Of a stretch of DNA of 64,000 nucleotides, positions 10,300-53,727 are shown piece after piece. Under the pieces are notes generated by a model. The model saw only the letters and a program-made list of their open reading frames with translations. It searched no databases and was not told the origin of the DNA. The DNA lies in the NCBI GenBank assembly GCA_965223845.1, contig CBDCXR010000004.1, positions 3,616,001 through 3,680,000 on the forward strand, read 5' to 3'. Source of the DNA: Planctomycetota bacterium (GTDB taxonomy: Bacteria; Planctomycetota; UBA8108; SXIK01). Positions within the stretch are counted from its first letter, which is position 1, and each line of letters begins with the position of its first letter. The position numbers and the translations under genes were made by a program.

Positions 10300-11633
10300 C
10301 TCGCGCCTCCCGGATCGCCGGTCCCGAATGCGTTCGCGCGACCCGCGCGCCGGCGCCAACGTCCCCAACCTACGCCGCCCGCGACGACCTCACTCCGGCG
10401 GAGGCGCGCCGCGGCGAGCGCGAGCACGATTCCGACGTAAAAAAGAGAAGTTCCGAAGGTGATCGCGACGACCGCCGCCGAAGGCTCGCCGTCGATCGCT
10501 TCGCGAAAAAGGAGCGCGATGTTCACGAGAGGAACGCACGCGAGGGCCGGAGTCGCGCTGATCTCGGGCGCGGTTAGAAAGAGCGCCGGCACGGCGGCGA
10601 GCACGTAGACGGGCATCACGTACGATTGTCCCTCTTTGAACGTCTGTGCCTGAAAAGCAAGGAACATCATCAGCGCGCTGAAGGTCACGCTGAGAAGAAC
10701 CGCCGCGAGGAGGACGACGAGGAGAACTCCCACACTCATCGAGACCGCGGAGAGCTTGAGGAGAGAAGCTTGGTGGACGAGAGTGAACGAGAGGCTCGCC
10801 GCGTTGAGGATAAACGCGACAAACGAGAGGAGAACGACGGCGAGGAACTTGCCCGCGACGATCGATCCGCGCGCGACCGGTGATAGGAGAGTCGTCTCGA
10901 GGCTGCCGCGCTCGCGCTCGCCGACGGTGACGTCGAGCGCAGGGTAGAGTGCACCGAGAGCCGTCATGACGAGCATGAGAAGCGGCAGAATGCGCGAGAT
11001 GAGGTGCTGCGACCGATCCGCCGTCGTCGAACGATCCTGTCCCGACACATCGACCGAGTCGACGAGACGAGTCGGCGCACCGACCTTCGCGGCGAGCGCT
11101 CGGAGCTCCTCCGTCTTCCACTCTTCGACCACTTCCGAGAGACGATCCTTTGCGCGCACGCTCCGATCCCGAACGCTGGCGAAGAGAACGGTGAGGGCGA
11201 TGTCGCCGATCGCGGCGGGCGCGGGCGTCGCGAGCACCCAGGCGTCGGCGCGGTCACGCGCGATCTCCGCGCGGGCTTCGGTCTCCGACGTCGCGGCGGC
11301 CGCGTCGGCGGCAGAGTCCGTTTCGAGAAGCGTGACCCTTTCATTCGCGCCGAGCCGCTCACGCAGCCGATCCACGGCCGGGATGCCGTCTCCCACGAGG
11401 CGAACGCGCGAGATTTCGTTCTCTTCCACTCCGCGCAAGTACGCGACGGACTGGATGGCGACCCAGACGAGAAACGGATAGAGAAAGACGGGGACGAATA
11501 CGGAGTAGATCAGCGTGTGCTGATCGCGAACGAGGCACCGACATTCCTTCGTGAACGTCACGATCGCTACGCGCATCCACGCGGTCAACGCCGTGCGGTT
11601 CGGTTGAGGTTGAACGCGAGCTGAATCGGACAC
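10296..11633 (-). CDS. NatB-like ABC-2 permease
   Basis: FTKECRCLVRD, GERERGSLETTL, AQTFKEGQ, multiple TM helices. Confidence 0.88.
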   Translation of the reverse strand: MSDSARVQPQPNRTALTAWMRVAIVTFTKECRCLVRDQHTLIYSVFVPVFLYPFLVWVAIQSVAYLRGVEENEISRVRLVGDGIPAVDRLRERLGANERVTLLETDSAADAAAATSETEARAEIARDRADAWVLATPAPAAIGDIALTVLFASVRDRSVRAKDRLSEVVEEWKTEELRALAAKVGAPTRLVDSVDVSGQDRSTTADRSQHLISRILPLLMLVMTALGALYPALDVTVGERERGSLETTLLSPVARGSIVAGKFLAVVLLSFVAFILNAASLSFTLVHQASLLKLSAVSMSVGVLLVVLLAAVLLSVTFSALMMFLAFQAQTFKEGQSYVMPVYVLAAVPALFLTAPEISATPALACVPLVNIALLFREAIDGEPSAAVVAITFGTSLFYVGIVLALAAARLRRSEVVAGGVGWGRWRRRAGRANAFGTGDPGGAR

Positions 11634-11684
11634 CCGGAGAAGCCCTTTGTCGTTCGTGGTTCGCTCAGCCGACCTTCGTGTAGA

Positions 11685-12671
11685 TCACGAATCGAGATCG
11701 CGGTCGTGGAGGAGCCCCTCCTCACGAAGCCGAGCGAAGTGCTCGACGGTGCGGCGGATCCCGTCCTCGAGAGGAGTGAGAGCGATCTCGCCGAGGAGAC
11801 TCCTGAGGCCGCTGTCGTCGAGATCGAAGGCGAGCGGCAGCGGCGGACCTTCGACCCGGATGCGGCTGCGCGCGCCAGGCACGATCTCGTCCAGCGCGTC
11901 GATGAAACTCTCGACCTCCGTGACGGCTCCGCGGAGATTGAACGCGAACGCTCCGTCCTCGAGTGCATCGACGCATTCGACGAAGCGCGCCGCGACGTCC
12001 TCGACGAAGTCGAAGGAAGTCGGGCCCGAAAACGGAATCGTGTACTCCCGCTCGAGCATCGCCGCCTTGATCGCCTTCGTCGGTCCGCTCGTCGCCCCGA
12101 TCTCTCGCCCGACGCCGTAGACCGTGTACGGTCGAAGTCCGACGCTCGGGATCCCGTGGTCGTGCCAGTACACTCGGGCGCAGCCTTCCCCCGCGGCCTT
12201 GAACACGCCGTAGTGCGTGCGCGGCCGGTGGCAGGCCTCGTCCGGAACGCGGCCTTCGTAGTCCTCGATCGGCCCGACGACCGCGGCGCTCGACGCGTAG
12301 ACGATCGGCAAGCCGCCCGCCGTGCGGGCAGCCTCGAACACCTCGAGGGTCCCGCGCAGGTTGACGCGCGAACCGAGAATCGGGTCGCGCCGACAGGTCG
12401 GCACCTGCACGCCGGCGAGATGGATGACGGCGGACGGCGCGAAGTCACGAACGGCGTCGTTCACCGACGAGCCGTCGGAAACGTCACCGAAGTAGCGGCC
12501 GAGTCGCTCGATCTCGTCGCGCGCGAGGATTTGACCCAGGAAATGGTTACTCGGCTCGAGATCGAGAAGCGCGACCGCATCCCCGCGCGCCAGGAGACGT
12601 CGAGCGATCCACGCGCCGATGAACCCCTGGCCGCCAGTGACGAGGATTCGCTGGCTCGAGCCGCCGGTCAC
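11685..12671 (-). CDS. NAD-dependent epimerase/dehydratase (extended SDR)
   Basis: ILVTGGQGFIG, HLAG, YASSAAV, YGVFK. GTG start overlaps the fabF stop (GTGA). Confidence 0.88.
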   Translation of the reverse strand: MTGGSSQRILVTGGQGFIGAWIARRLLARGDAVALLDLEPSNHFLGQILARDEIERLGRYFGDVSDGSSVNDAVRDFAPSAVIHLAGVQVPTCRRDPILGSRVNLRGTLEVFEAARTAGGLPIVYASSAAVVGPIEDYEGRVPDEACHRPRTHYGVFKAAGEGCARVYWHDHGIPSVGLRPYTVYGVGREIGATSGPTKAIKAAMLEREYTIPFSGPTSFDFVEDVAARFVECVDALEDGAFAFNLRGAVTEVESFIDALDEIVPGARSRIRVEGPPLPLAFDLDDSGLRSLLGEIALTPLEDGIRRTVEHFARLREEGLLHDRDLDS

Positions 12672-41633: not shown

Positions 41634-43067
41634 TTAACCCGAGCCCGTCACCGACTTCAGGTCCGCTCGCTGCTCCGAGTAGTTCTCGCTAAACGCGAGC
41701 ACCGCGGGATCGGGCTCCTCCCCCCACTGTTCGCACGCGTGCCGGTAGAACTCCGGCCACCAGTTCTCGTGCGCCGTAAGTCCCTTCTCCCGATACTCCT
41801 CCCAGCGGTTGAGGATGCGGCTCCAGGTTCGATCGCCGAACTCGACCGCTTCCTTCCGGTTCGCGAACTCGGGAACGAGAAACTGACGGCCGATCTGCGC
41901 GTGGAGCACCTCGTCCGCCCAGTCGAAGTCCTGAATCGTCGCCATGAGAGGAAGTCCGGACTCGGTGGCGAGCTCCCACTCGTAGCGCTTCCCGGTCTTC
42001 GTCATGAGCCCCTGCTCGATGTAGTAGAGCACCGAATGACTCTCGAGCGGATTGCACACGGTGTTCAGATTGAGTGACCAGGTGTGATTGACGCGCGCCC
42101 TCCGCCAGTCGACCCCGAGCGCGGCGAAACCGACTTCGCCGAGCATCGCGTGGCGCGCTTCGTCCCAGAGCTGGCGCGACATCGCGAGGTAGTAGTCCCA
42201 ATCCTTTCCGGTCGTCCGGTGGATGATGCTCGCCATCATCTCGGGGACGTCGATCTCGCGGAGGCGCTTGAAGAGGAGAAGGAGCATCTTCGCTTTCGCG
42301 GGATAGTCGTCGCTGTAGATGAACGCCTCCGCGTTCACTCCACCGTTGTACGGATCGGAGAACCGCTCGTCCCGGGCCGGCACGGGATCGAACTCGTAGG
42401 GCGTCGCGGAGTGCATTCTCTCGGGCGATGAATCCGCCGTATCGCTCGTCCCGTCGAGTCCGCCGGCCGCTTCGAGGCACGCGGACAGACGATCGAGCCA
42501 CGGCTTCGCGCGCGTCCGCGCCTCCGAGTCGACGATGCCGGCGACCGCCTCGCCTCCGAACGCGAGCATGTCGTCGATCTCGAGGAGGGCGAATCGGAGC
42601 ACGCGGACGGAGGGGCGGTCCGTCATCGGGTGCGTCGCACGAACGTACTCCGACATTCCCGCTCGAACCTCGGGTAGCCCGATCTCGTAGACGCCGAGAA
42701 GCAGTTCTTCCGTCGTCGGCGCGCCGAGGATCTCGTCGAAAAGCACCTCGAGTGCCGGGTGAGGGACCTTGTCGAGGTGAAGCGGTGGCTCGCGCATTTC
42801 ACCGACGCGCCCCCGAAGCGCGGCGACGTGCTCGGCGCACAGATACGAGTGGTGACTGAACGCCGTCTTCAGCTCGTAGATCGGCTCCGCCGTGAGGCGC
42901 GCGGTGAGGATCCCGTGGAGACGCTTGAGTGCGTAGTGGAATCGCTTCAGACGATCGACGCAGGCTTCGACGCTGAGGCCTGGTCCGGCCGCTTCCTCAA
43001 GCGAGCAGACGCCCGCGAGAACGGGAATGCCGCGATAAGCGTGCGGCGAATCCGCCGAATCATTCAT
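41634..43067 (-). CDS. Ferritin-like (DUF455-like) putative diiron protein
   Basis: REIDVPE, WDEARH, IEQGL, WADEVLH carboxylate/His motifs. Confidence 0.65.
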   Translation of the reverse strand: MNDSADSPHAYRGIPVLAGVCSLEEAAGPGLSVEACVDRLKRFHYALKRLHGILTARLTAEPIYELKTAFSHHSYLCAEHVAALRGRVGEMREPPLHLDKVPHPALEVLFDEILGAPTTEELLLGVYEIGLPEVRAGMSEYVRATHPMTDRPSVRVLRFALLEIDDMLAFGGEAVAGIVDSEARTRAKPWLDRLSACLEAAGGLDGTSDTADSSPERMHSATPYEFDPVPARDERFSDPYNGGVNAEAFIYSDDYPAKAKMLLLLFKRLREIDVPEMMASIIHRTTGKDWDYYLAMSRQLWDEARHAMLGEVGFAALGVDWRRARVNHTWSLNLNTVCNPLESHSVLYYIEQGLMTKTGKRYEWELATESGLPLMATIQDFDWADEVLHAQIGRQFLVPEFANRKEAVEFGDRTWSRILNRWEEYREKGLTAHENWWPEFYRHACEQWGEEPDPAVLAFSENYSEQRADLKSVTGSG

Positions 43068-43166: not shown

Positions 43167-43385
43167 CTACTGCAGGCGGTAGGTGATGCGCCCCTTGTTG
43201 AGGTCGTACGGGGACATGTCGACCCGTACGCGGTCGCCCGGAAGAATGCGGATGTAGTGCTTGCGCAGCCGCCCCGCGACGTGCGCGAGAATCTGGTGCC
43301 CGTTCTCGAGCTTCACTTTGAACGTCGTGTTTGGAAGGGCCTGCACCACAGTCCCTTCGAGCGTGATCATGTCATCTTTCGGCAA
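43167..43385 (-). CDS. infA: Translation initiation factor IF-1
   Basis: [36 protein letters not shown]; GGAGG SD and TTG start. Confidence 0.97.
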
Positions 43386-43433
43386 AAGATCCTCCGGCTG
43401 AGCGCGTCCACCTGCCCCCGGTCGAATCCGGGT

Positions 43434-43461
43434 ATTCTACCCAGGGCGCCCCGACTGTCCA
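43434..43461 (-). promoter_or_regulatory. Sigma70-like promoter of infA
   Basis: TGGACA-N16-TAGAAT about 50 nt upstream of the start. Confidence 0.5.
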
Positions 43462-43745
43462 CGGCTCGCCCGGACGGCCGACGATGCCGCTGCGGAGTAG
43501 CCGGCGTCCTTCGCGCAGAGCGAGGCCCGCCGCTCGCGACGGACGACCGCCTCTCCCGCAGCTCTCACGGAATTCGGCGACCGCAGCGGCAGAGGCCTCG
43601 CACCGCGGGAGCGGACGCGGCGATGCCGCGGCACGGACGCGAAACGTGTCGGTGCCCCACCGAGCAACCGGCCCGCGAGGCTTCCGCTGCTCGAGACTCC
43701 CGCGATGGCGTCGACGAAGAACTTGGCGAGAACTCCGGGGGCGCC

Positions 43746-45506
43746 TCAGACGTCGATCTTCCCACCGAGAATGGGGAGCCCGCCGACGATTCCTCGCACC
43801 CCGGTGACCTCGCCGTGGACGATGATGTCCGAGCCGTCGACGATGCCGACCTCGACTTCGCGCGAGACGACGCCGCCGGAGCCGCCACCGCCACCGCCGC
43901 CGCACGCGACGGGGATGATCGCAATCGCGACGACCGCACCGGTCGCCATCAGGGTCGAGAATCGGCGCGAACGCCGGAGCCGCCAGGCCGCAACGAAGCT
44001 CACTCCGAAGAGAAGGAACCACGCGTCGCCCGATTCCGCCGGTGGTGCCGGATCGACGACGTCCGCCACAAGGACGAAGTGCGTCGCGGAGCCGCGCGTG
44101 AGCGTCCGCTCCTCGATCGCGATGTCGATCGCACCGTCGTTCCGGCTGAAGCGCTGCGGGAACGCCAGCTCTTCCTCTCCCGCGTCGAGCATTCCGTTCT
44201 CGTTCTCGTCGAGGTAGAGGGTCACGTCGCCGAGCAGCCTCGATTCGTTGCCGGCTCCACTTGCCGTGAAGCGCATCCCGCTCCACTCGCCGGGCTCGAG
44301 GTCGGTCCTCCACTCGATGCGACCGGCGAAGAGAAGCGCTCGATTCCCGCCGTTCATGAGCTTCGGCGCGAATCCCGGTCTCGCGGTGAGATCGCTCCGG
44401 CGACGATCGATATCGACCGCCGTGATCACGACGCGGTCGGAATCATCTCCACAGTCGTCGTCGACCGAAAACTCGAACTCGAAGTCGGTGTCGGAATTCA
44501 CGGGCGGGAGAATGACCGTCGCCTCGATCTCGTCCGTTCCGGTGAAGCTCTCGACCTCCGGACCGGCGATCTGCCGCCACGAGTAGGTTCGGATTCCGCT
44601 CGTCGCGACCCCCTTGAGCGCTACCGCATCGAGCTCGGCGGCGAAGGCGTCCCCGCCCGCATCGGCGAGTGGCGGCGGACACGTCGATGCGACGACGAGC
44701 ACTTCGTCGGTGTCGGAGCCGGAGTCGTTGGTCGCCGTGAGGGCGAAGACGAGATCGGAGTCGAAGAACACCGGCGGCAGCTCGACCGTCAGCAGGCTCG
44801 TCATCTCGCCGCTCAGAGTCGCGGGAGGGCCGGAGATCTGCTCCCAGGAGAACTCGAGGTTTTCGCCGAGGCTCCGGCTACCGTCGAGCATCACCGTCGC
44901 GCCGCCGCGGGCGATCTGATCGGGGCCCGCGTCGGCGAACGGGCTCACGATCACACCGCGAACGACTCGGCCGTCGAACAGCGCCGGGACGACGCTGAGG
45001 CCCGCCGAGTTCGTGAGCACGTTGTTGATCGGCGTCACGCCGGCGAGGCCGTCGACGAGCCCGACGCGCGTAGCTCGGCCGGCCGGCATCAGGATGTCGA
45101 AATCCATGCGCATGAGCGAGTGATCGCCCGCCGGAAGGACGTTCGACGTATCCCCTCCGAGATCGTGCACGCCACCGTAGGCGACCACGCCGGGACTCTG
45201 AACGCCGTTGAAGAAGTTCCACGCCGAAGCGTCGGTCCCGTCGATCGTCACGTCGACGAGCTGGAGATCCGCCGGATCGTACTGCACGCTCGACGAGAAG
45301 GCGTAGACGTCGAAATCGTGCTCGGCGCGAACGAAGACCGAAACGCTCGTCTGATCCGCGCTCGCGTTGACATCTTCGACGTACATCCGGTCGACGCCGA
45401 GCGCGCCCGTCGGGCTCGCGAGGGCCAATACGAGCACAGAAAACGATCCGAAAACGAGACATCGGTTCACGAAGGAGCGGTCGCCCTGTTCGCGGCGTGC
45501 GGACAT
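43746..45506 (-). CDS. Secreted cohesin-like + PKD-repeat protein with an internal TM hairpin / Cys-polyGly motif near the C-terminus
   Basis: Cohesin-like N-domain (VYAFSSSVQYDPADLQLVDV), two PKD/REJ-like repeats (ADAGPDQ...FSWEQISGP; ADAGGDA...YSWRQIAGP), Ig-like domain (VTLYLDENENGMLD), TM-RLRRSRR-TM-ACGGGGGGG tail. Confidence 0.8.
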   Translation of the reverse strand: MSARREQGDRSFVNRCLVFGSFSVLVLALASPTGALGVDRMYVEDVNASADQTSVSVFVRAEHDFDVYAFSSSVQYDPADLQLVDVTIDGTDASAWNFFNGVQSPGVVAYGGVHDLGGDTSNVLPAGDHSLMRMDFDILMPAGRATRVGLVDGLAGVTPINNVLTNSAGLSVVPALFDGRVVRGVIVSPFADAGPDQIARGGATVMLDGSRSLGENLEFSWEQISGPPATLSGEMTSLLTVELPPVFFDSDLVFALTATNDSGSDTDEVLVVASTCPPPLADAGGDAFAAELDAVALKGVATSGIRTYSWRQIAGPEVESFTGTDEIEATVILPPVNSDTDFEFEFSVDDDCGDDSDRVVITAVDIDRRRSDLTARPGFAPKLMNGGNRALLFAGRIEWRTDLEPGEWSGMRFTASGAGNESRLLGDVTLYLDENENGMLDAGEEELAFPQRFSRNDGAIDIAIEERTLTRGSATHFVLVADVVDPAPPAESGDAWFLLFGVSFVAAWRLRRSRRFSTLMATGAVVAIAIIPVACGGGGGGGSGGVVSREVEVGIVDGSDIIVHGEVTGVRGIVGGLPILGGKIDV

Positions 45507-45745
45507 CGGGAATCTCCAGCGAAGGAAGGAGGTGCGTCGGGGCACGGAGAGAAGCAAGTAGAAGCCGGCGCACGCACTGGTTTCGGCCGGTGAACGGCCC
45601 TCTCGGACCAGTTCGTACGCAGACTTCTACGATACCACCTGCCCGTGCCAGTGAAGTGCCGGCCGGCAGTCCGGCGGGCAGTCAAAGAACTCCTACCCCG
45701 TCGATACGGAAACTCTCGTGCCAGTTTGCTCGCGCCGGGCGGCGA

Positions 45746-47277: not shown

Positions 47278-48669
47278 ATGCGCACTCGTCCGACCGTTCG
47301 CTTCGCCGGTTCGACCCGTTCCGCCGTCGCCCTGCTCGCCTCCGTCGCCGCTCTCTCGGTCGGCTGCGACCCGGCTCCGCAGGGAGCCTCCGGCGGGAGC
47401 GCGGACGACCCGGCGGCGGTTTACACACGCGCGGAAGCGCTCGCGAGCCGCCACCGGGTGAGCGAGGCCATCGCGACGATCGAGGCGTACGCGCAGGACC
47501 GCTCGGGACCACTGAGTTCGGACGCGGAGCGCGCGCTCTACGAACGCTGGGCCGACCTCCTCCTTCGCGCCTCCCGTCCAGACGACGCCGCGCGCGCCCT
47601 CGCCCGGATCGCCGCGACGGCTCGCCTCGAGCGCCGTGACCTCCGCGCACGCGTCGCGTCCGCGTGCGGGCGCTACGACGAGGCGCTTCGATGGTTCGCA
47701 CGGCTGCCGGACTCGGATCGGCTCCGCAGCCCCGGCGCATTCGCCGACACGGCGCTTCAAGGCGGACGGCCTCGCCTCGCCGCGGCGCTCGCCGCGACCG
47801 AGCTCGCCCGCGATCCGTGGCTCGACGAGACGACCCTAGTGTTTGGACGCGCTCTCGCGCGCTGCGGTCAGAAGGAGGCCGCAGGGGCCTTTCTCGAACG
47901 GTATCGCCGCGGGGAATCGTTCCGGAACGCGCTCGATCTCGCGGTCGAGCTCGAGTTCCACGGCCGGGATGTGGCCGCGCGCCTTCAGCGGGCGAAAGCC
48001 GAACACGCGAGAGGACGCTGGTTCGAGAGCATGAAGCTCGCGAACGACGCCCTCGAGCTCGACCGGAACGCCGGCGCGGCGTACGTTCACCTCGCGGAAC
48101 TCTCGACTCAGCTCGCGCGACCCGCGGATGCGATCCGCGTACTCGAGCGACTTCCGCCCCACGCGCGCAAGTGGCTCGCTCTCGGAAAAGCCTACGAAGC
48201 GAACGACGATCGCGAGCGCGCGAAGCACGCATACGAGGAGGCGGCGGAGCTGGACGACCAACTCACCGAAGCGGCCGACGGGCTCTCTCGCCTCGAATCA
48301 CCGTCCACAGCATCTGCGCTGGATGGGACGCGCCGCGCCGTCCGCGACGCTACCGCCGGCAAGTCGCTCTCGACGACGACTCCGGAGCTCCGGCGGCTCG
48401 CGGACGCGTACGCGGTAGCCAGCCGAGACTTCGAGGCTCGGGGGATTGCGCTCCTCACCGTGCGACTCCAGCCGGGCGACACGGCGCTCCGGCGCTGGGC
48501 GACGCGGCACTTCTCCGCGCCGAGCGATGCCTTCGTCCGCGTCTGGCTTCTCTCCCCAGTCGATACTCGGTCGACAGCGACCGAGCTCGCAGCACTCGGC
48601 GTCGACGTAACGGAGCTCAAGGCTCTTCCCGCGCTCGCTGCCTCGCCGGTCGGTGAGCCCGGGCGGTGA
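47278..48669 (+). CDS. TPR-repeat lipoprotein
   Basis: Lipobox-like LSVGC, TPR-like repeats (ALELD, LGKAYEA, AAELD). Confidence 0.75.
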   Translation: MRTRPTVRFAGSTRSAVALLASVAALSVGCDPAPQGASGGSADDPAAVYTRAEALASRHRVSEAIATIEAYAQDRSGPLSSDAERALYERWADLLLRASRPDDAARALARIAATARLERRDLRARVASACGRYDEALRWFARLPDSDRLRSPGAFADTALQGGRPRLAAALAATELARDPWLDETTLVFGRALARCGQKEAAGAFLERYRRGESFRNALDLAVELEFHGRDVAARLQRAKAEHARGRWFESMKLANDALELDRNAGAAYVHLAELSTQLARPADAIRVLERLPPHARKWLALGKAYEANDDRERAKHAYEEAAELDDQLTEAADGLSRLESPSTASALDGTRRAVRDATAGKSLSTTTPELRRLADAYAVASRDFEARGIALLTVRLQPGDTALRRWATRHFSAPSDAFVRVWLLSPVDTRSTATELAALGVDVTELKALPALAASPVGEPGR

Positions 48670-50438
48670 AGCCGGCGAAAGGGACTGCGATGGCGACGGC
48701 TTCCAATCGGTACCCACCGCGACGAGGGGGACCTGCGGCGTTCCGTATCCTCGCGCCCGTGACCGCCCTCGTCCTCGCGCTCACGTCCGGAGCCTGTGAG
48801 CGGGCCGCCGAGTCGCCCGCCGGAGACGGCATCCGCTTCACCGACGTGACGCTCTCCGCCGGAATCGACTTCGTCCACGTGAGTGGACGCGCTGGGGCGC
48901 GGGCCATGCCCGAGACGATCGGCGGCGGTGTCGCGTGGATCGACTTCGACGACGACGGGACGCTCGATCTCTATTTCGTGAGCGGCCACTCGCAGCCGAC
49001 TTCCGGCGCCCCGGGCGACGCCGGAAACCGCCTCTATCGCGGACGCGGCGACGGCAGGTTCGAGGACGTGACGGAGGCCGCCGGAGTCGGGGACCGCGGC
49101 TACGGGATGGGTGTCGCTGTCGGCGACTACAACGGCGACGGGAAGGACGACATCTACGTCACCAATTACGGACGGAACACGCTCTACCGAAACGAAGGCG
49201 GCAGGTTCACCGATGTGACCGAGGTCGCGGGAGTCGGCGCGCCGGAGTGGAGCACGAGCGCGGCGTTCCTCGATTACGACGACGATGGCTGGCTCGATCT
49301 CTACGTCTGCCAGTACGTCGACTACGATCCCAACCATCACTGCACTCGCGATGGGCACCCCGCCTACTGCAGCCCTAAGGAGTTCGACGGCGTCCCCGAT
49401 CGGCTGTTTCGAAACCGCGGGGACGGTACCTTCGAAGACGTGAGCGAGCTCGCCGGCGTCGCGATCGCGGGACGGATGGACGGAAAATCCCTCGGCGTCG
49501 TCGTCCTCGACTACGATCGCGACGGCGACGAGGACATCTACGTCGCGTGCGACCAAGTGCGGAATCTCCTCTTCGCGAATCGCGGCGACGGGCGCTTCGA
49601 CGAGGTGGGACTCGTCGCGAACGTCGCGTACTCGCGGGAGGGCCGGTCGCAGGCGGGCATGGGAGTCGATGCCGGCGATGTCGACTCCGATGGCGATCTC
49701 GACATCGTCGTCACCAACTTCGCCGACGAGCCGAACGCGCTCTACCTCGCAGACGAGGCGGGGTTCTTCACCGAAGCGAGCGCGGCGCTCGGGCTGGGAG
49801 GACCGTCGTTGGTTCCGCTCGGATTCGGCGTTCTCTTCGTCGATGTCGATCTCGATTCGGATCTCGATCTCTACGTCGCGAACGGACACGTGCAGGACGA
49901 TCCGGGCAGTGTTCGCCCCGGCCGGACCTTCGAGCAGAGCGACCAGATCCTGCTGAACGACGGACGCGGTCGGCTCCGCGACGTGTCGGCGGAAGCGGGC
50001 TCGCCGTTCGCGCGGCGCTACGTGAGTCGCGGAGCGGCGGCGGGCGACTACGACGGGGACGGCGATCTCGACATCGTCGTCGTTCACATCGATGCGCCGC
50101 CTGCACTCCTCAGGAACGACAGCGCTCGCGGCGCGTGGATCGCGTTCGATCTCACCGCGCGCGCTCGTTCGCGGAACGGGTACGGGGCGCGAGTGACCGT
50201 CCACGCGCGGAGGACGCGAGACGGGAGCCCGTTCGTCCGCGTCGCCGAATGCCGCGCGGCGCGAAGCTACGCCGCGTCCTCGGATCCGCGCGTGCGCTTC
50301 GGGCTGGGAGCGGAACCGGTCACGGTCGAGCGCGTCGAGATCCTTTGGCCGTCGGGAGCGGCTCACACTCTCGAACGACCGTCGCTCGGCGAGGTCCACG
50401 CGGTCGCGGAACCCCCGCGACCCACGCCGCCGCGCTAG
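48666..50438 (+). CDS. CRTAC1 / ASPIC-UnbV family FG-GAP propeller protein
   Basis: FTDVT, repeated DxDxDGxxD motifs, SRGAAAGDYDGDGDLD, RFGLG, EILWPSG. Confidence 0.92.
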   Translation: MKPAKGTAMATASNRYPPRRGGPAAFRILAPVTALVLALTSGACERAAESPAGDGIRFTDVTLSAGIDFVHVSGRAGARAMPETIGGGVAWIDFDDDGTLDLYFVSGHSQPTSGAPGDAGNRLYRGRGDGRFEDVTEAAGVGDRGYGMGVAVGDYNGDGKDDIYVTNYGRNTLYRNEGGRFTDVTEVAGVGAPEWSTSAAFLDYDDDGWLDLYVCQYVDYDPNHHCTRDGHPAYCSPKEFDGVPDRLFRNRGDGTFEDVSELAGVAIAGRMDGKSLGVVVLDYDRDGDEDIYVACDQVRNLLFANRGDGRFDEVGLVANVAYSREGRSQAGMGVDAGDVDSDGDLDIVVTNFADEPNALYLADEAGFFTEASAALGLGGPSLVPLGFGVLFVDVDLDSDLDLYVANGHVQDDPGSVRPGRTFEQSDQILLNDGRGRLRDVSAEAGSPFARRYVSRGAAAGDYDGDGDLDIVVVHIDAPPALLRNDSARGAWIAFDLTARARSRNGYGARVTVHARRTRDGSPFVRVAECRAARSYAASSDPRVRFGLGAEPVTVERVEILWPSGAAHTLERPSLGEVHAVAEPPRPTPPR

Positions 50439-50546
50439 CTCGGCGGCGGGTGGCCACAGCTCCGTGCGGGTTCGCCCTCCGTTCGAATCGCGGATCCTCG
50501 GAGAAAACACCGGCGCCGATTTCGCCGTTCGTTAGCGTTTTCGTCG

Positions 50547-50787: not shown

Positions 50788-53727
50788 ATGTCCCGCCGTA
50801 CTGTCGGGCTAGCTGTAGCCGCCGCTACTCTCGTTTCACTCGCTGGGCCCGCTTCGGCTCAGACGACCGACGAAGGTTTCATCAATCAATGGCTCGCGTT
50901 CCCCCCGATCACGCGTGTCATCGGGGGCAACTCGCCCGGAATCGATCTCCTTCGCGTAGATTACATCGCCGATGGCGATGAAACCTTCGAGGCGACGATG
51001 CTGCCGACGGAGGACACCGAGGTCGAGCCGGACTTCTTCGATCCCGACTCACCCTCGGTCGGCCTCGCCGATCCGGCCGCGGAGAGCATCTTCACCGTAT
51101 GGGACAATGCCGAGATCGATCCACAGCTCGACACGATGGACATCGCCGCGCGCTTCGGCGAATCGCCCGACTCGGTCTTCTACGGAATCGTCTACATCAA
51201 CGTCGAAGGCGACCAGCCCATCGAGGGCTTCGTCGAGCTCGGAAGCGACGACTCCGTGCAGGTGAAGATCGACGACTGTGAGGCCTTCGTCCGCAATATC
51301 GCTCGCGGGTGCGGCGGCGCAGGCGTCGTCCAGGATCGCGCGGCCGTCACGCTCGCCCCGGGACCTCACCGCGTCATGATCAAGGTGTTCCAGGGCGGCG
51401 GCGGCTTCTGCTATCGCCTGCGGCTCACGGATGCGGAAGGCGTGTCGCTTACCGTCGACGAGCGCATCTCGGTCGGAATCGACCCGGATGATTTCGGCCT
51501 CGAGTCGCTCGACCCCGTGGGGCTTTCGCTCCAGCGAACGGTCACTCCCGACGTTCTCCCGCGCATTTCGCAGGACAACGTAGTCGACGTCAGTGTCGCG
51601 TTCGAAAAGACGCTCCCGACTCTGGCTGACGATGTCGAAGTCGTCGTCGAGGAAGTTCTCGCCGACGGCCTCACGATTACGTCGGCGACGCCGGATCCGA
51701 CGTCGAACGCCGATGGAATCGCGCGCTGGAATACGACGGTGGGCGCGCTCGTCGCGGACGGGATCTCCTACACGATCGAGATCACGGAGAAGGGTGAGTA
51801 CGACCTCGTCGGTCGCGTCACGGTCGGAACCGCACCGGCTTGCGGGACGGGCAGCGGAACGATTCTCGCCCTCGATCTCCAGGGAATCCTCCTCGGCGAC
51901 CTCGTCGGCGGTGGTGAGGGGCTCGGGGATTCCGATCCGCCTCCGTTCGCTGCGATCAACATCGACACTGGGCTCTTCATGACCCAAGACGAGGTGAACG
52001 GGAGCGACGGCAACACGTCCGACAACGACGGGATCAATCCCGCGCCGGTCGACGAGAGTGACGTCATCGACTCTGTGTTCTTCATCGACGACGAAAACAC
52101 CGACATTCAGATCATCAACTCGGGTGGCGTCGAGTACCAGTTCATCGAGGGCGACGCTCATCCGGTGAGCTGGAACGGAATCCTGAGCAACGTCACGCAC
52201 GACCGAGACAAGGGAGTCGGAAACATCTTCGTCGGTGGCGAAGGTGGCATCGCGACCGGTGTCGGCGTCCACGCGTCGGCGGGAGTGACGTTCGATCTCG
52301 CCGGAATGCGGGACGCGTATCCCGGTCAGATCGGTGTGGTGACCGGCATCGTCGGCATGGACACGTGCGGAGGGTCGGTCAACAACTACATCATCTTCAG
52401 CAATGACGACGAAGTGCTCGAGGAGCCGCTCTTCATCCAGTCGGCGACCTCGAACACCGGCGAGTTCGTCGCGCTCATCATTCCTGAAGAGGCGACGTAT
52501 ATGACCTTCGCTGCGGGCGACGCCGGAAACGGCATCGGCTGCGACCACGGTGTGTTCGGCGACATGCGCGTCCTATCGGTCGAAGACGCCGTGCTCCCGC
52601 CCGGAAACGCAGCCTGCGCACGCGATGACGACGGCAACCTCGCGCTCACTTGGGAGCACATCGGCTCGAAGCTCGGAGAGTTCCGGATCACCGCGAACGG
52701 TGAGCAAGTCGGAACGGCAGCGGGTGACGCTCTCAGCGCGACCGTCCCGTCCGCCTCGCTTCCCGATGGGGTCGTGGAGGTCTGCGTCGAGAACAGCGAA
52801 GGCGCCGCGTGCTGCGCGACCGTCGGTGGAACCTCGGTCAACATCAACTGCGGCGGTCCGGCGCTGAACGGATTCGTCGATGGCCGAAACTGGGGGAGCG
52901 ATACCAACACGAACCCGAGTCCGTTCCTCGTCGCCGGTGGAAACACGGCCGATTTCAGCAACGGCTTCAGCCCGCCGATCGGCGTCGCGGACACGCAGCT
53001 CACCGAGCCGGAGTTCGTCGACGATCCGGAACGCAGCCGCCTCTTCGCGACGGAGCGCTGGGCGGACGGCGACGTCGTCTACAACTTCCCGGTGGCGAAC
53101 GGCGACTACGAGGTGTTCCTCCTGTTCGCCGAAGGTTGCTGCAGCGATGGCTGTGAGGACCTCGACGACCCGGCGGAATCGCTCGGAAATTGCCGCGTCT
53201 TCGACATCTTGATCAACGGCGATGTCGTCGAAGATCAGTTCTCGCAGCACGTCGAGGCTCAGCGGGAGCTGGGCGAGGATCTTCCGAACGCGAACTGGGG
53301 TATCGCGCTCGTCAAGGGCCCCTACCTCGTCGAGGACTCGAGTGAGATCGAAGTCCGCATCCAGGATCTCGGCGGCGGCAACCCGCCGGAGAACGCGTCG
53401 ATCAAGGGAATCTCGATCCGCGCGGCGGGCGTCGGTGGCGCTCAGATCCGCTACGGCGACGTCAACAACGACGGCGCGGTCAACATCGCGGATGCGATCT
53501 ACAAGCTGAACAATCTCTTCGGCGACGGCCCCGTGCCGACGTGTGCGGAGACTGCCGACGTGAACTCCGACGAGGCGTACAACATCGCCGACGCGATCTT
53601 CCTCCTCAACAACCTCTTCGGTGACGGTCCGCCTCCGATCGACGGATTCGGTCCCCAGGGATTCGACTGCGGAGAGGATCCGGACCCCGCGAACGCACTC
53701 GGTTGCGCGCTCTACGACAAGTGCTAG
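50788..53727 (+). CDS. Secreted acidic multi-domain protein: galactose-binding-like, NPCBM-like, malectin, C-terminal dockerin
   Basis: SD AGGAGGG, signal peptide ending ASA, LGSDDSV, GVHASAGVTFDL...CDHGVFGD, INCGG...ATERW...FAE...RVFDILING, GDVNNDGAVNIADA / ADVNSDEAYNIADA. Confidence 0.85.
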   Translation: MSRRTVGLAVAAATLVSLAGPASAQTTDEGFINQWLAFPPITRVIGGNSPGIDLLRVDYIADGDETFEATMLPTEDTEVEPDFFDPDSPSVGLADPAAESIFTVWDNAEIDPQLDTMDIAARFGESPDSVFYGIVYINVEGDQPIEGFVELGSDDSVQVKIDDCEAFVRNIARGCGGAGVVQDRAAVTLAPGPHRVMIKVFQGGGGFCYRLRLTDAEGVSLTVDERISVGIDPDDFGLESLDPVGLSLQRTVTPDVLPRISQDNVVDVSVAFEKTLPTLADDVEVVVEEVLADGLTITSATPDPTSNADGIARWNTTVGALVADGISYTIEITEKGEYDLVGRVTVGTAPACGTGSGTILALDLQGILLGDLVGGGEGLGDSDPPPFAAINIDTGLFMTQDEVNGSDGNTSDNDGINPAPVDESDVIDSVFFIDDENTDIQIINSGGVEYQFIEGDAHPVSWNGILSNVTHDRDKGVGNIFVGGEGGIATGVGVHASAGVTFDLAGMRDAYPGQIGVVTGIVGMDTCGGSVNNYIIFSNDDEVLEEPLFIQSATSNTGEFVALIIPEEATYMTFAAGDAGNGIGCDHGVFGDMRVLSVEDAVLPPGNAACARDDDGNLALTWEHIGSKLGEFRITANGEQVGTAAGDALSATVPSASLPDGVVEVCVENSEGAACCATVGGTSVNINCGGPALNGFVDGRNWGSDTNTNPSPFLVAGGNTADFSNGFSPPIGVADTQLTEPEFVDDPERSRLFATERWADGDVVYNFPVANGDYEVFLLFAEGCCSDGCEDLDDPAESLGNCRVFDILINGDVVEDQFSQHVEAQRELGEDLPNANWGIALVKGPYLVEDSSEIEVRIQDLGGGNPPENASIKGISIRAAGVGGAQIRYGDVNNDGAVNIADAIYKLNNLFGDGPVPTCAETADVNSDEAYNIADAIFLLNNLFGDGPPPIDGFGPQGFDCGEDPDPANALGCALYDKC

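Follow-up and report, generated by a model that had tools for sequence, protein, structure and literature searches.

A lipoprotein-signal-like hairpin splits the last domain of a planctomycete cohesin-fold protein and may provide a lipid anchor at its C-terminal end

We analyzed a stretch of 64,000 nucleotides from a Planctomycetota bacterium (contig CBDCXR010000004.1 of assembly GCA_965223845.1, positions 3,616,001 to 3,680,000; the whole stretch is here called the window) and concentrated on a single gene on its reverse strand. The protein product, P0001, has its last domain split by a hairpin of two putative transmembrane (TM) helices, the second of which runs into a cysteine as in a lipoprotein signal. 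The whole open frame (43746..45557, minus strand, as are all features of the gene described below; stop codon at 43746-43748) encodes 603 residues if read from a TTG. Translation more likely begins at residue 18, an ATG at 45506, and the protein would then have 586 residues; residue numbers refer to the 603-residue frame unless stated otherwise. Residues 18-54 (45396..45506) read as a probable N-terminal Sec signal peptide, with a basic n-region, a hydrophobic core and small residues ahead of V55, and AlphaFold2 modelled this segment as a helix (residues 11-30 in the 586-residue numbering). The exported part would begin with a cohesin-fold domain (residues ~57-200, 44958..45389), recognized by a weak Pfam match and by its fold, and continue with two PKD-like (K319L-like) domains (residues ~205-385, 44403..44945; PF22352 in two stretches, E 2.1e-15). 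A match to NF038112 over residues 205-385 runs through the PKD-like region only. The first PKD-like domain was modelled with low confidence (predicted local distance difference test, pLDDT, below 50 at residues 223-303 of the model).

The C-terminal part of the protein is the subject of this study. The first and larger part of a split beta-sandwich (residues ~386-508, 44034..44402) ends in the strand F-V-L-V-A-D-V and is followed by TM1 (residues 512-525, 43983..44024; by sequence reading), which is predicted to pass from the outside to the inside. Next come a loop with five arginines in seven residues (526-532, 43962..43982), predicted to be cytoplasmic by the positive-inside rule, and TM2 (533-551, 43905..43961) with the lipobox-like end I-P-V-A. 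Cys552 (codon 43902-43904), a putative diacylglyceryl acceptor, is followed by a Gly7-Ser-Gly2 tether (553-562, 43872..43901; AlphaFold2 pLDDT below 50) and by a tail of 41 residues (563-603, 43749..43871), which is predicted from a repeat-unit profile, Smith-Waterman alignment and AlphaFold2 to form the last three beta-strands of the split domain. By count, a cut ahead of Cys552 would release a C-terminal piece of 52 residues. An earlier note, made from the DNA letters, had described this order of TM1, basic loop, TM2, Cys, poly-Gly and 41-residue tail and had called the proline at position −3 of the Cys noncanonical for a lipobox. Both descriptions hold: the layout lies in one open frame, the Cys codon was confirmed against the DNA, and the proline is present and falls outside the usual lipobox, [LVI][ASTVI][GAS]C.

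The same ending was found in P0002 (39% identical) and P0003 by a first, word-indexed homologue search with residues 400-603 as the query. An exhaustive phmmer search with residues 401-603 against 1.84 billion representatives gave 261 matches at E<=0.001. A motif filter that asks for 16 mostly hydrophobic residues, a Cys, a Gly/Ser-rich stretch and 20-90 residues to the protein end picked out the module in 50 of 152 phmmer-derived proteins, which are cluster representatives. P0033, P0061, P0074 and P0082 share the layout but have a linker poor in Gly. To guard against circularity, 47 proteins were picked solely because a single phmmer alignment runs from the domain into the tail. The Cys was aligned in 43 of these, and the remaining 4 have a Cys 1-3 residues off. 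In MAFFT alignments of 39 and of 51 sequences the Cys column was invariant (39/39 and 51/51), and the one other invariant column of each alignment is an Asp of the domain, so that conservation of the Cys among homologues, on which the earlier note had made its reading depend, is borne out.

The surroundings of the Cys are also conserved. Of the 51 sequences, 34 have Ala at position −1, 8 have Ser, 7 have Gly and 2 have Thr, so that Ala, Ser or Gly stands there in 49/51; Leu is found at position −3 in 11. The distance from the last Lys or Arg to the Cys is 19 residues in the window protein and 18 residues as the median of the family (range 13-31). A hydrophobic segment occupies the TM1 site in all 51 aligned sequences, with Pro or Gly near the outer end in many members, and a cluster of Arg or Lys marks the loop site across the alignment. 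Downstream, the 14 residues after the Cys hold a median of 8 Gly, and the post-Cys piece is 42-62 residues long (median 52). A six-frame search of 59 genomes of the same class gave, among the matches listed, end-reaching frames at at least seven loci in at least six genomes (the genome of the window, G000, as well as G001, G002 with two loci, G003, G005 and G009), with no internal stops; orthologous uninterrupted frames were found in G002, G003 and G005. The G003 gene is a positional orthologue that shares a vWA/HEAT neighbour, and it is ~36% identical as compared to 70-88% for housekeeping neighbours. A scan of the window's own genome for a C-terminal Cys-poly-Gly behind a hydrophobic stretch returned this gene only. 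The same continuous architecture in P0002, P0003, ~50 representatives and six genomes shows that the layout is neither an accident nor an assembly fusion. The split domain, the hairpin, the Cys and the tail are real and form a conserved module.

To place the tail we used a second class of phmmer matches, giant proteins with 5-22 stretches that match the part ahead of TM1 only. In ten of the giant proteins the matches recur every 157-172 residues while covering ~100, and the uninterrupted domain stands there in tandem with a period of ~160-167 residues. From 79 uninterrupted units that were cut out, a repeat-unit hidden Markov model (HMM) of 162 positions was built. All 50 tails of the post-Cys pieces (50/50) aligned at positions ~102-145 of this model, immediately behind the portion that the region ahead of TM1 matches, and at E<=0.01 it recognized 44/50 real tails as compared to 1/50 reversed and 0/500 shuffled ones. 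In the window protein the half ahead of TM1 covers HMM positions 14-108 (residues 414-508, E 1.7e-21), and the tail alignment starts at position 111/112 and extends to 143 (residues 570-601).

This was further supported by P0076, a 37%-identical relative without the hairpin, in which HMM positions 26-142 are contiguous at residues 317-434. A tail HMM built without the window protein matched P0076 at residues 398-435 (E 5.9e-17), and the window tail aligned to its residues 398-432 with a Smith-Waterman score of 50, which was reached by 0/1000 shuffles. The C-terminus of P0076 looks dockerin-like by eye (Asp/Asn-rich repeats), and a Pfam dockerin was not called there at E<=0.1. In two members Pfam recognizes Big_2 domains between the Cys linker and the tail strands, one in P0119 and two in P0132, and the halves of both proteins still keep the register (HMM positions 3-104/105 and 104/106-145). 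A DUF11 domain is found upstream in P0119 and P0132. These controls place the insertion point in one loop, near HMM position 105-110. Taken together, the comparisons strongly support that the tail is homologous to the strands with which the preceding domain ends. The proposal of the earlier note that the tail resembles the missing last strands of that domain has stood up well, both in the register of the 50 tails and in the alignment to uninterrupted homologous domains that it had suggested, where P0076 and the 79-unit HMM place the tail at the domain end.

The structure predictions are in line with this. AlphaFold2 was run on the 586-residue protein with 39 aligned sequences (mean pLDDT 80), and the split domain and the tail, the latter as three strands, both reached pLDDT 95-98, the two helices 53-65 and the Gly run below 50. 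In a second run with the last 220 residues and 51 sequences (mean pLDDT 87.3, predicted TM-score, pTM, 0.76) the tail reached pLDDT 93-97; the TM1 region was helical in both runs (pLDDT 53-77). When the domain without the hairpin (366-490) and the piece from the Cys to the end (535-586; both in the 586-residue numbering) were predicted as two chains, the complex score was 0.52 and that of the best of 3 controls 0.00, with at least 96% contact agreement between runs and a partner pLDDT of at least 67. The mark set for this score is passed by 58/80 solved complexes and by 2/110 mismatched pairs, and among those passing at 0.60 or below are 7/80 solved complexes and both of the passing mismatches. 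The pass may reflect a likeness to solved beta-sandwiches, as both chains are halves of one fold. A structure search of the PDB with the split domain gave no match at E<=0.001; the best were 8w4g (1.4e-3) and TTHA1873 (7wwo_A, target TM-score 0.51). This outcome is uninformative on tail packing. The best scores in the ESM Atlas (0.77) lie under the level where a match exceeds a lead.

We then compared the segment around TM2 with lipoprotein signals. A signal-like n-region and h-region are present (the five Arg of residues 526-532 followed by 19 mostly hydrophobic residues), and Ala at −1 and Val at −2 fit the lipobox, while Pro at −3 does not. The segment stands at residues 526-552 of 603 and hence not at the N-terminus. 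In the own genome a regular expression found 11 N-terminal lipoprotein signals, about 9 of them convincing, with the same Cys-poly-Gly style. TM2, the Cys and the poly-Gly thus closely resemble, as sequences, the lipoprotein signals of the clade itself, the frequent Pro aside. The genome also encodes the machinery for lipoprotein processing, with one LspA, three Lgt-like genes and one Lnt above cut-off, and its two Omp85 matches suggest that the organism is diderm. The Lgt genes lie at 6826018-6826923, 6128053-6128709 and 2877489-2878133 of contig C4 of G000, and most genomes of the class show one. We considered the extra Lgt paralogues as a dedicated lipidation enzyme and rejected this, since the module-bearing G001, G003, G005 and G009 have one Lgt each.

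A curated model of a similar element already exists. NCBIfam NF058595, entitled 'lipo-invert putative C-terminal anchoring domain', aligns to residues 512-560 of the window protein (E 5.6e-6, 26.7 bits), and it matches 25/39 family members at E<=0.01, with a best E of 2.2e-6 among the 39 relatives. The layout of TM, basic loop, TM, Cys, Gly-rich segment and short tail, as read from the name of the model and its aligned part, is present in the window protein. On separate C-terminal pieces the model gave no match for those of 132 and 217 residues and E 0.054 for that of 69 residues, which we attribute to a filter or length effect. No match exceeded the cut-off in 41 related genomes (0/41). Among the matches listed there, 12 are weak ones at E<=0.001, of which 4 are C-terminal modules (L001, L013, L015 and L021), while the other 8 are lipoprotein signals of the ordinary kind, at the N-terminus and with Cys-Gly-Gly-Gly-Gly behind them; weaker matches in the own genome (L002-L010) are ordinary TM segments or N-terminal signals. 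In a scan that covered 401 genomes of the phylum, the cut-off was exceeded only in a 1583-residue frame of G060 (L056, contig C100, ~11031-11804), where the tail part of the model (72/73-113) matches three tandem repeats 321 bases (107 residues) apart. These repeats suggest that the NF058595 tail may be a piece of a repeat domain as well. The cut-off failed and only the hairpin and the Cys align, so we regard the window family as probably the lipo-invert device in a different host domain. The idea of the earlier note is therefore partly known already, in the form of a curated model of an experimentally untested kind from which the window family appears to differ in its host domain. The structural half of its overall reading, the split domain, stands, as do the likeness to a signal and the invariant Cys, and its novelty is reduced.

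Our literature search found no paper on NF058595 or lipo-invert. In the portions available of the papers found for an internal or C-terminal lipobox or lipoprotein signal, the phrase refers to the C-terminal end of a normal signal peptide; in the available part of one preprint (bioRxiv 10.1101/2022.09.15.508085) it denotes a signal whose cleavage leaves Cys first in the mature protein. Elsewhere in the phylum we observed proteins with an internal TM segment, an Arg cluster, a second TM segment, a lipobox Cys and a Gly/Ser linker, followed by ~200-500 residues (L058 in G403, L065 in G427, L061 in G289 and L067 in G422, L072 in G337 and L073 in G130). Proteins of the L058 type look like junctions of a membrane protein with a full-size lipoprotein, and internal lipoprotein signals may be more general than the window family.

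Based on these data we propose that the last domain is split by an internal Lgt/LspA signal and that the lipidated tail chain serves as an anchor held by the fold, a reading which we consider the probable one, if by no means a secure one. The body exported by Sec would consist of the cohesin fold, the two PKD-like domains and a beta-sandwich of ~150 residues with an insertion of ~55 residues in one loop. TM1 would act as a stop-transfer segment from outside to inside, the Arg cluster would stay inside according to the positive-inside rule, and TM2 would re-insert from inside to outside, so that its C-terminal end faces outward exactly as in a lipoprotein signal. Diacylglycerol would then be placed on Cys552 by Lgt, LspA would cut between A551 and C552, and the new amino end would perhaps be acylated by Lnt. 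By folding back, the tail would complete the sandwich with its final three strands and thereby create a two-chain domain, in which chain A (body and hairpin) and chain B (the 52-residue lipopeptide) are joined by a shared fold and not by a covalent bond. The outcome would be a lipid anchor at the C-terminal end of the body. In this scheme the return of the chain across the membrane is explained, as the tail supplies the three strands that would keep both chains together. The words 'anchoring domain' in the NCBIfam title would be explained as well, since cleavage without strand sharing separates the lipid from the body. Lipoprotein processing at Cys552 is plausible. We infer topology, lipidation and cleavage in this scheme, and a later removal of the hairpin is speculative.

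Several observations weigh against the proposal. The tail of the window protein alone is weak against the repeat-unit HMM (E 0.026; domain E 0.19), and pairwise BLASTP of the C-terminal 203 residues against P0076 reported the part ahead of the hairpin (E 3e-20) and not the tail. We derived the packing of the tail from the confidence values (pLDDT and pTM) together with homology and not from contacts, so the earlier suggestion to ask AlphaFold whether the last 41 residues pack into the domain has a divided answer, with a confident three-stranded tail (pLDDT 93-98) on one side and a packing taken from confidences and homology on the other. The two-chain prediction was graded as weak support. NF058595 stays below its cut-off of 37 bits, both with the protein and in the six-frame genome search (29.5 bits), and only its positions 28/29 to 80/81 align, with the flanks (1-27 and 82-113 of 113) unaligned. 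Pro at position −3 is present in 20/51 family sequences and in 0/11 of the N-terminal signals of the own genome, and with this atypical residue LspA or Lgt may treat the site differently. LolA (PF03548) was not found in the own genome, which is 91.7% complete. Lastly, the cleaved body would keep its own hairpin, and as long as the hairpin stays in place the lipid brings no obvious gain.

The strongest of the other explanations is that the hairpin is a permanent two-helix anchor in a loop of the last domain, with the Cys either unlipidated or lipidated but uncut, so that the protein remains one chain. The evidence for a split domain fits this equally well, and both the atypical Pro at −3 and the absence of a dedicated processing enzyme nearby speak for it. 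A single C-terminal TM helix would anchor the protein as well, though, and the return path then needs a reason. In addition, the Cys invariant in 51 of 51 sequences, the small −1 residue in nearly all of them and a tether typical for lipoproteins of the clade form the pattern that is expected from selection by Lgt and LspA, and the whole Big_2 domains that follow the Cys in P0119 and P0132 are placed as in a normal lipoprotein. We consider a permanent hairpin rather unlikely, but it deserves to be taken seriously.

A sorting signal at TM1 would give a different picture. TM1 and the Arg cluster could be a C-terminal signal for a sorting enzyme (exosortase, rhombosortase or myxosortase), which would cut at TM1 and discard everything downstream, leaving TM2, the Cys and the tail without an anchoring role. 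A TM helix followed by RRRR looks alike, Pro or Gly is frequent near the outer end of TM1, and in the own genome there are 2 matches to exosortase as well as two rhombosortase-like genes that pass the cut-off. In P0053 and P0086, giant relatives built of tandem repeats, the C-terminus consists of a Gly-Cys motif with a TM helix and basic residues behind it. We take this arrangement to resemble Cys-containing C-terminal sorting signals, and it could be counted in favor of such a signal here. However, the PEP-CTERM, GlyGly-CTERM and MYXO-CTERM models were not matched (protein at E<=1, C-terminal pieces at E<=10); together with LPXTG these NCBIfam models gave no match, although HMMER filters may drop very short weak matches. 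Discarding the downstream part would also cost the domain three strands that are nevertheless conserved and in register, and no sortase gene is linked, which makes a sorting signal improbable. Least of all do we expect a fusion or artefact, in which loss of a stop codon or misassembly has merged the gene of a TM-anchored protein with that of a small lipoprotein, or in which the tail is translated separately from Met536, whose ATG lies just ahead of TM2. The data contradict this: the frame is continuous in ~50 cluster representatives and six genomes, Met536 is not conserved and a start there leaves no basic n-region, and the tail shares homology with the end of the domain upstream of it, which is unexpected for an unrelated lipoprotein.

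The proposal of an internal Lgt/LspA signal can be extended, more tentatively, to a piggy-back anchor. After the LspA cut an intramembrane protease might clip the Pro/Gly-rich TM1 and so release the body from the hairpin, and the lipopeptide, held in the sandwich through its three strands, would then carry the cohesin protein to the outer membrane or the surface, so that the body is lipid-anchored at its C-terminal end without a covalent link, as cargo of the lipoprotein sorting route. Alternatively the hairpin might stay in the inner membrane with the lipid in the outer membrane, and the two chains would bridge both. The device would be modular, with Big_2 domains on the lipoprotein chain in P0119 and P0132 and with the hairpin and lipobox junctions in unrelated proteins of the phylum (L058, L065, L061/L067 and L072/L073). 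As a whole we regard this extension as doubtful.

Several known systems share parts of the architecture. NF058595 has in common the C-terminal order of TM, basic loop, TM, Cys and Gly-rich segment and differs in the flanking host domain, which in the window family has a repeat period of ~160 residues. A classical N-terminal lipoprotein signal likewise combines a basic n-region, ~18 hydrophobic residues, a small −1 residue, an invariant Cys and a Gly/Ser tether, whereas the signal-like segment here lies ~530 residues into the protein, behind a stop-transfer helix and with frequent Pro at −3, and the 'mature lipoprotein' would be ~50 residues long without a domain of its own. In the structural polyprotein of flaviviruses the helix that anchors one segment is succeeded by another that serves as the signal of the next, and the chain is cut behind this signal helix, at the outer face. 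The likeness is in the two-helix layout, but there signal peptidase I yields separate products, while for the window protein we propose signal peptidase II and two products that share one fold. GAIN and SEA domains of eukaryotes are autoproteolytic and the cleaved strand stays in the fold, so that, as proposed here, two chains are kept together by a shared beta-sheet next to a membrane anchor; they do so without a lipid and without an inserted hairpin. The PEP-CTERM/exosortase, GlyGly-CTERM/rhombosortase, MYXO-CTERM and PGF-CTERM/archaeosortase systems also anchor secreted proteins at the C-terminus and look similar at TM1 and the Arg cluster; different here are the second helix, the Cys after it rather than before, and the structural tail. 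Cellulosomal anchoring scaffoldins share a cohesin fold on a protein that is, here putatively, anchored to the envelope, and a dockerin-rich genome, but here the host is predicted to be diderm, Pfam Cohesin is below cut-off and the anchor is of another kind. Unimolecular phage spanins (PMC6139136) unite a lipoprotein signal and a TM helix in one product, which can thus be fixed by the lipid as well as by the helix. They differ in the reversed order, with the lipid N-terminal and the helix C-terminal, in having no split domain and in their role in lysis.

Regarding the function of the exported body, the match to Pfam Cohesin (PF00963) reached 15.7 bits (E 0.018), below the gathering cut-off of 24.1. 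A Foldseek search with the AlphaFold2 model found many solved cohesins (e.g. 6kgc_A, 5nrm_A and 1aoh_A) with target TM-scores of 0.71-0.80 and E from 1e-8 to 1e-6. The own genome has 125 Dockerin_1 matches, and a cohesin-like N-terminal domain (model positions ~5-180) was observed in 59/59 class members, in many of them repeatedly. From the cohesin fold and the 125 dockerin matches we suspect that the anchored protein serves as a docking site for dockerin-bearing proteins at the envelope, and these sequence data point to a large cohesin-dockerin system in a diderm lineage.

The gene neighbourhood comprises infA, a 477-residue protein without a Pfam match, and genes for vWA/HEAT, TPR, FG-GAP/ASPIC and NPCBM/malectin/dockerin proteins, and no protease or sortase is found among the flanking genes. 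Directly downstream lies infA (43167-43385, minus strand; recognized by eye from its translation), followed by the gene of the 477-residue protein (41634-43067, minus strand). A 979-residue NPCBM/malectin/Dockerin_1 protein is encoded at 50788-53727 on the plus strand, 5 kb from the cohesin-fold gene. Synteny of the neighbours is restricted to the vWA/HEAT gene shared with G003. G005 and G009 each have a paralogue of the FG-GAP gene at a distance of 3-6 kb, and we rejected this as a meaningful linkage, as the family is probably too common. Long antisense frames, such as those at 43257-45593 (plus strand, 778 residues, opposite the cohesin-fold gene) and at 48192-50510 (772 residues, opposite the FG-GAP gene), result from the high G+C content; the coding strand was settled by homology.

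To our knowledge, C-terminal lipid anchors have so far needed special sorting enzymes (exosortase, archaeosortase, myxosortase), and the module suggests a third route that would use the housekeeping Lgt and LspA only. If confirmed, it would be a bacterial counterpart of the cleaved but associated GAIN and SEA domains, and signal peptidase II would be able to act deep within a polypeptide. Annotation pipelines and lipoprotein predictors that consider the N-terminus only would then miss a class of lipoproteins. The module would also offer a compact and portable tag for C-terminal lipid anchoring of proteins.

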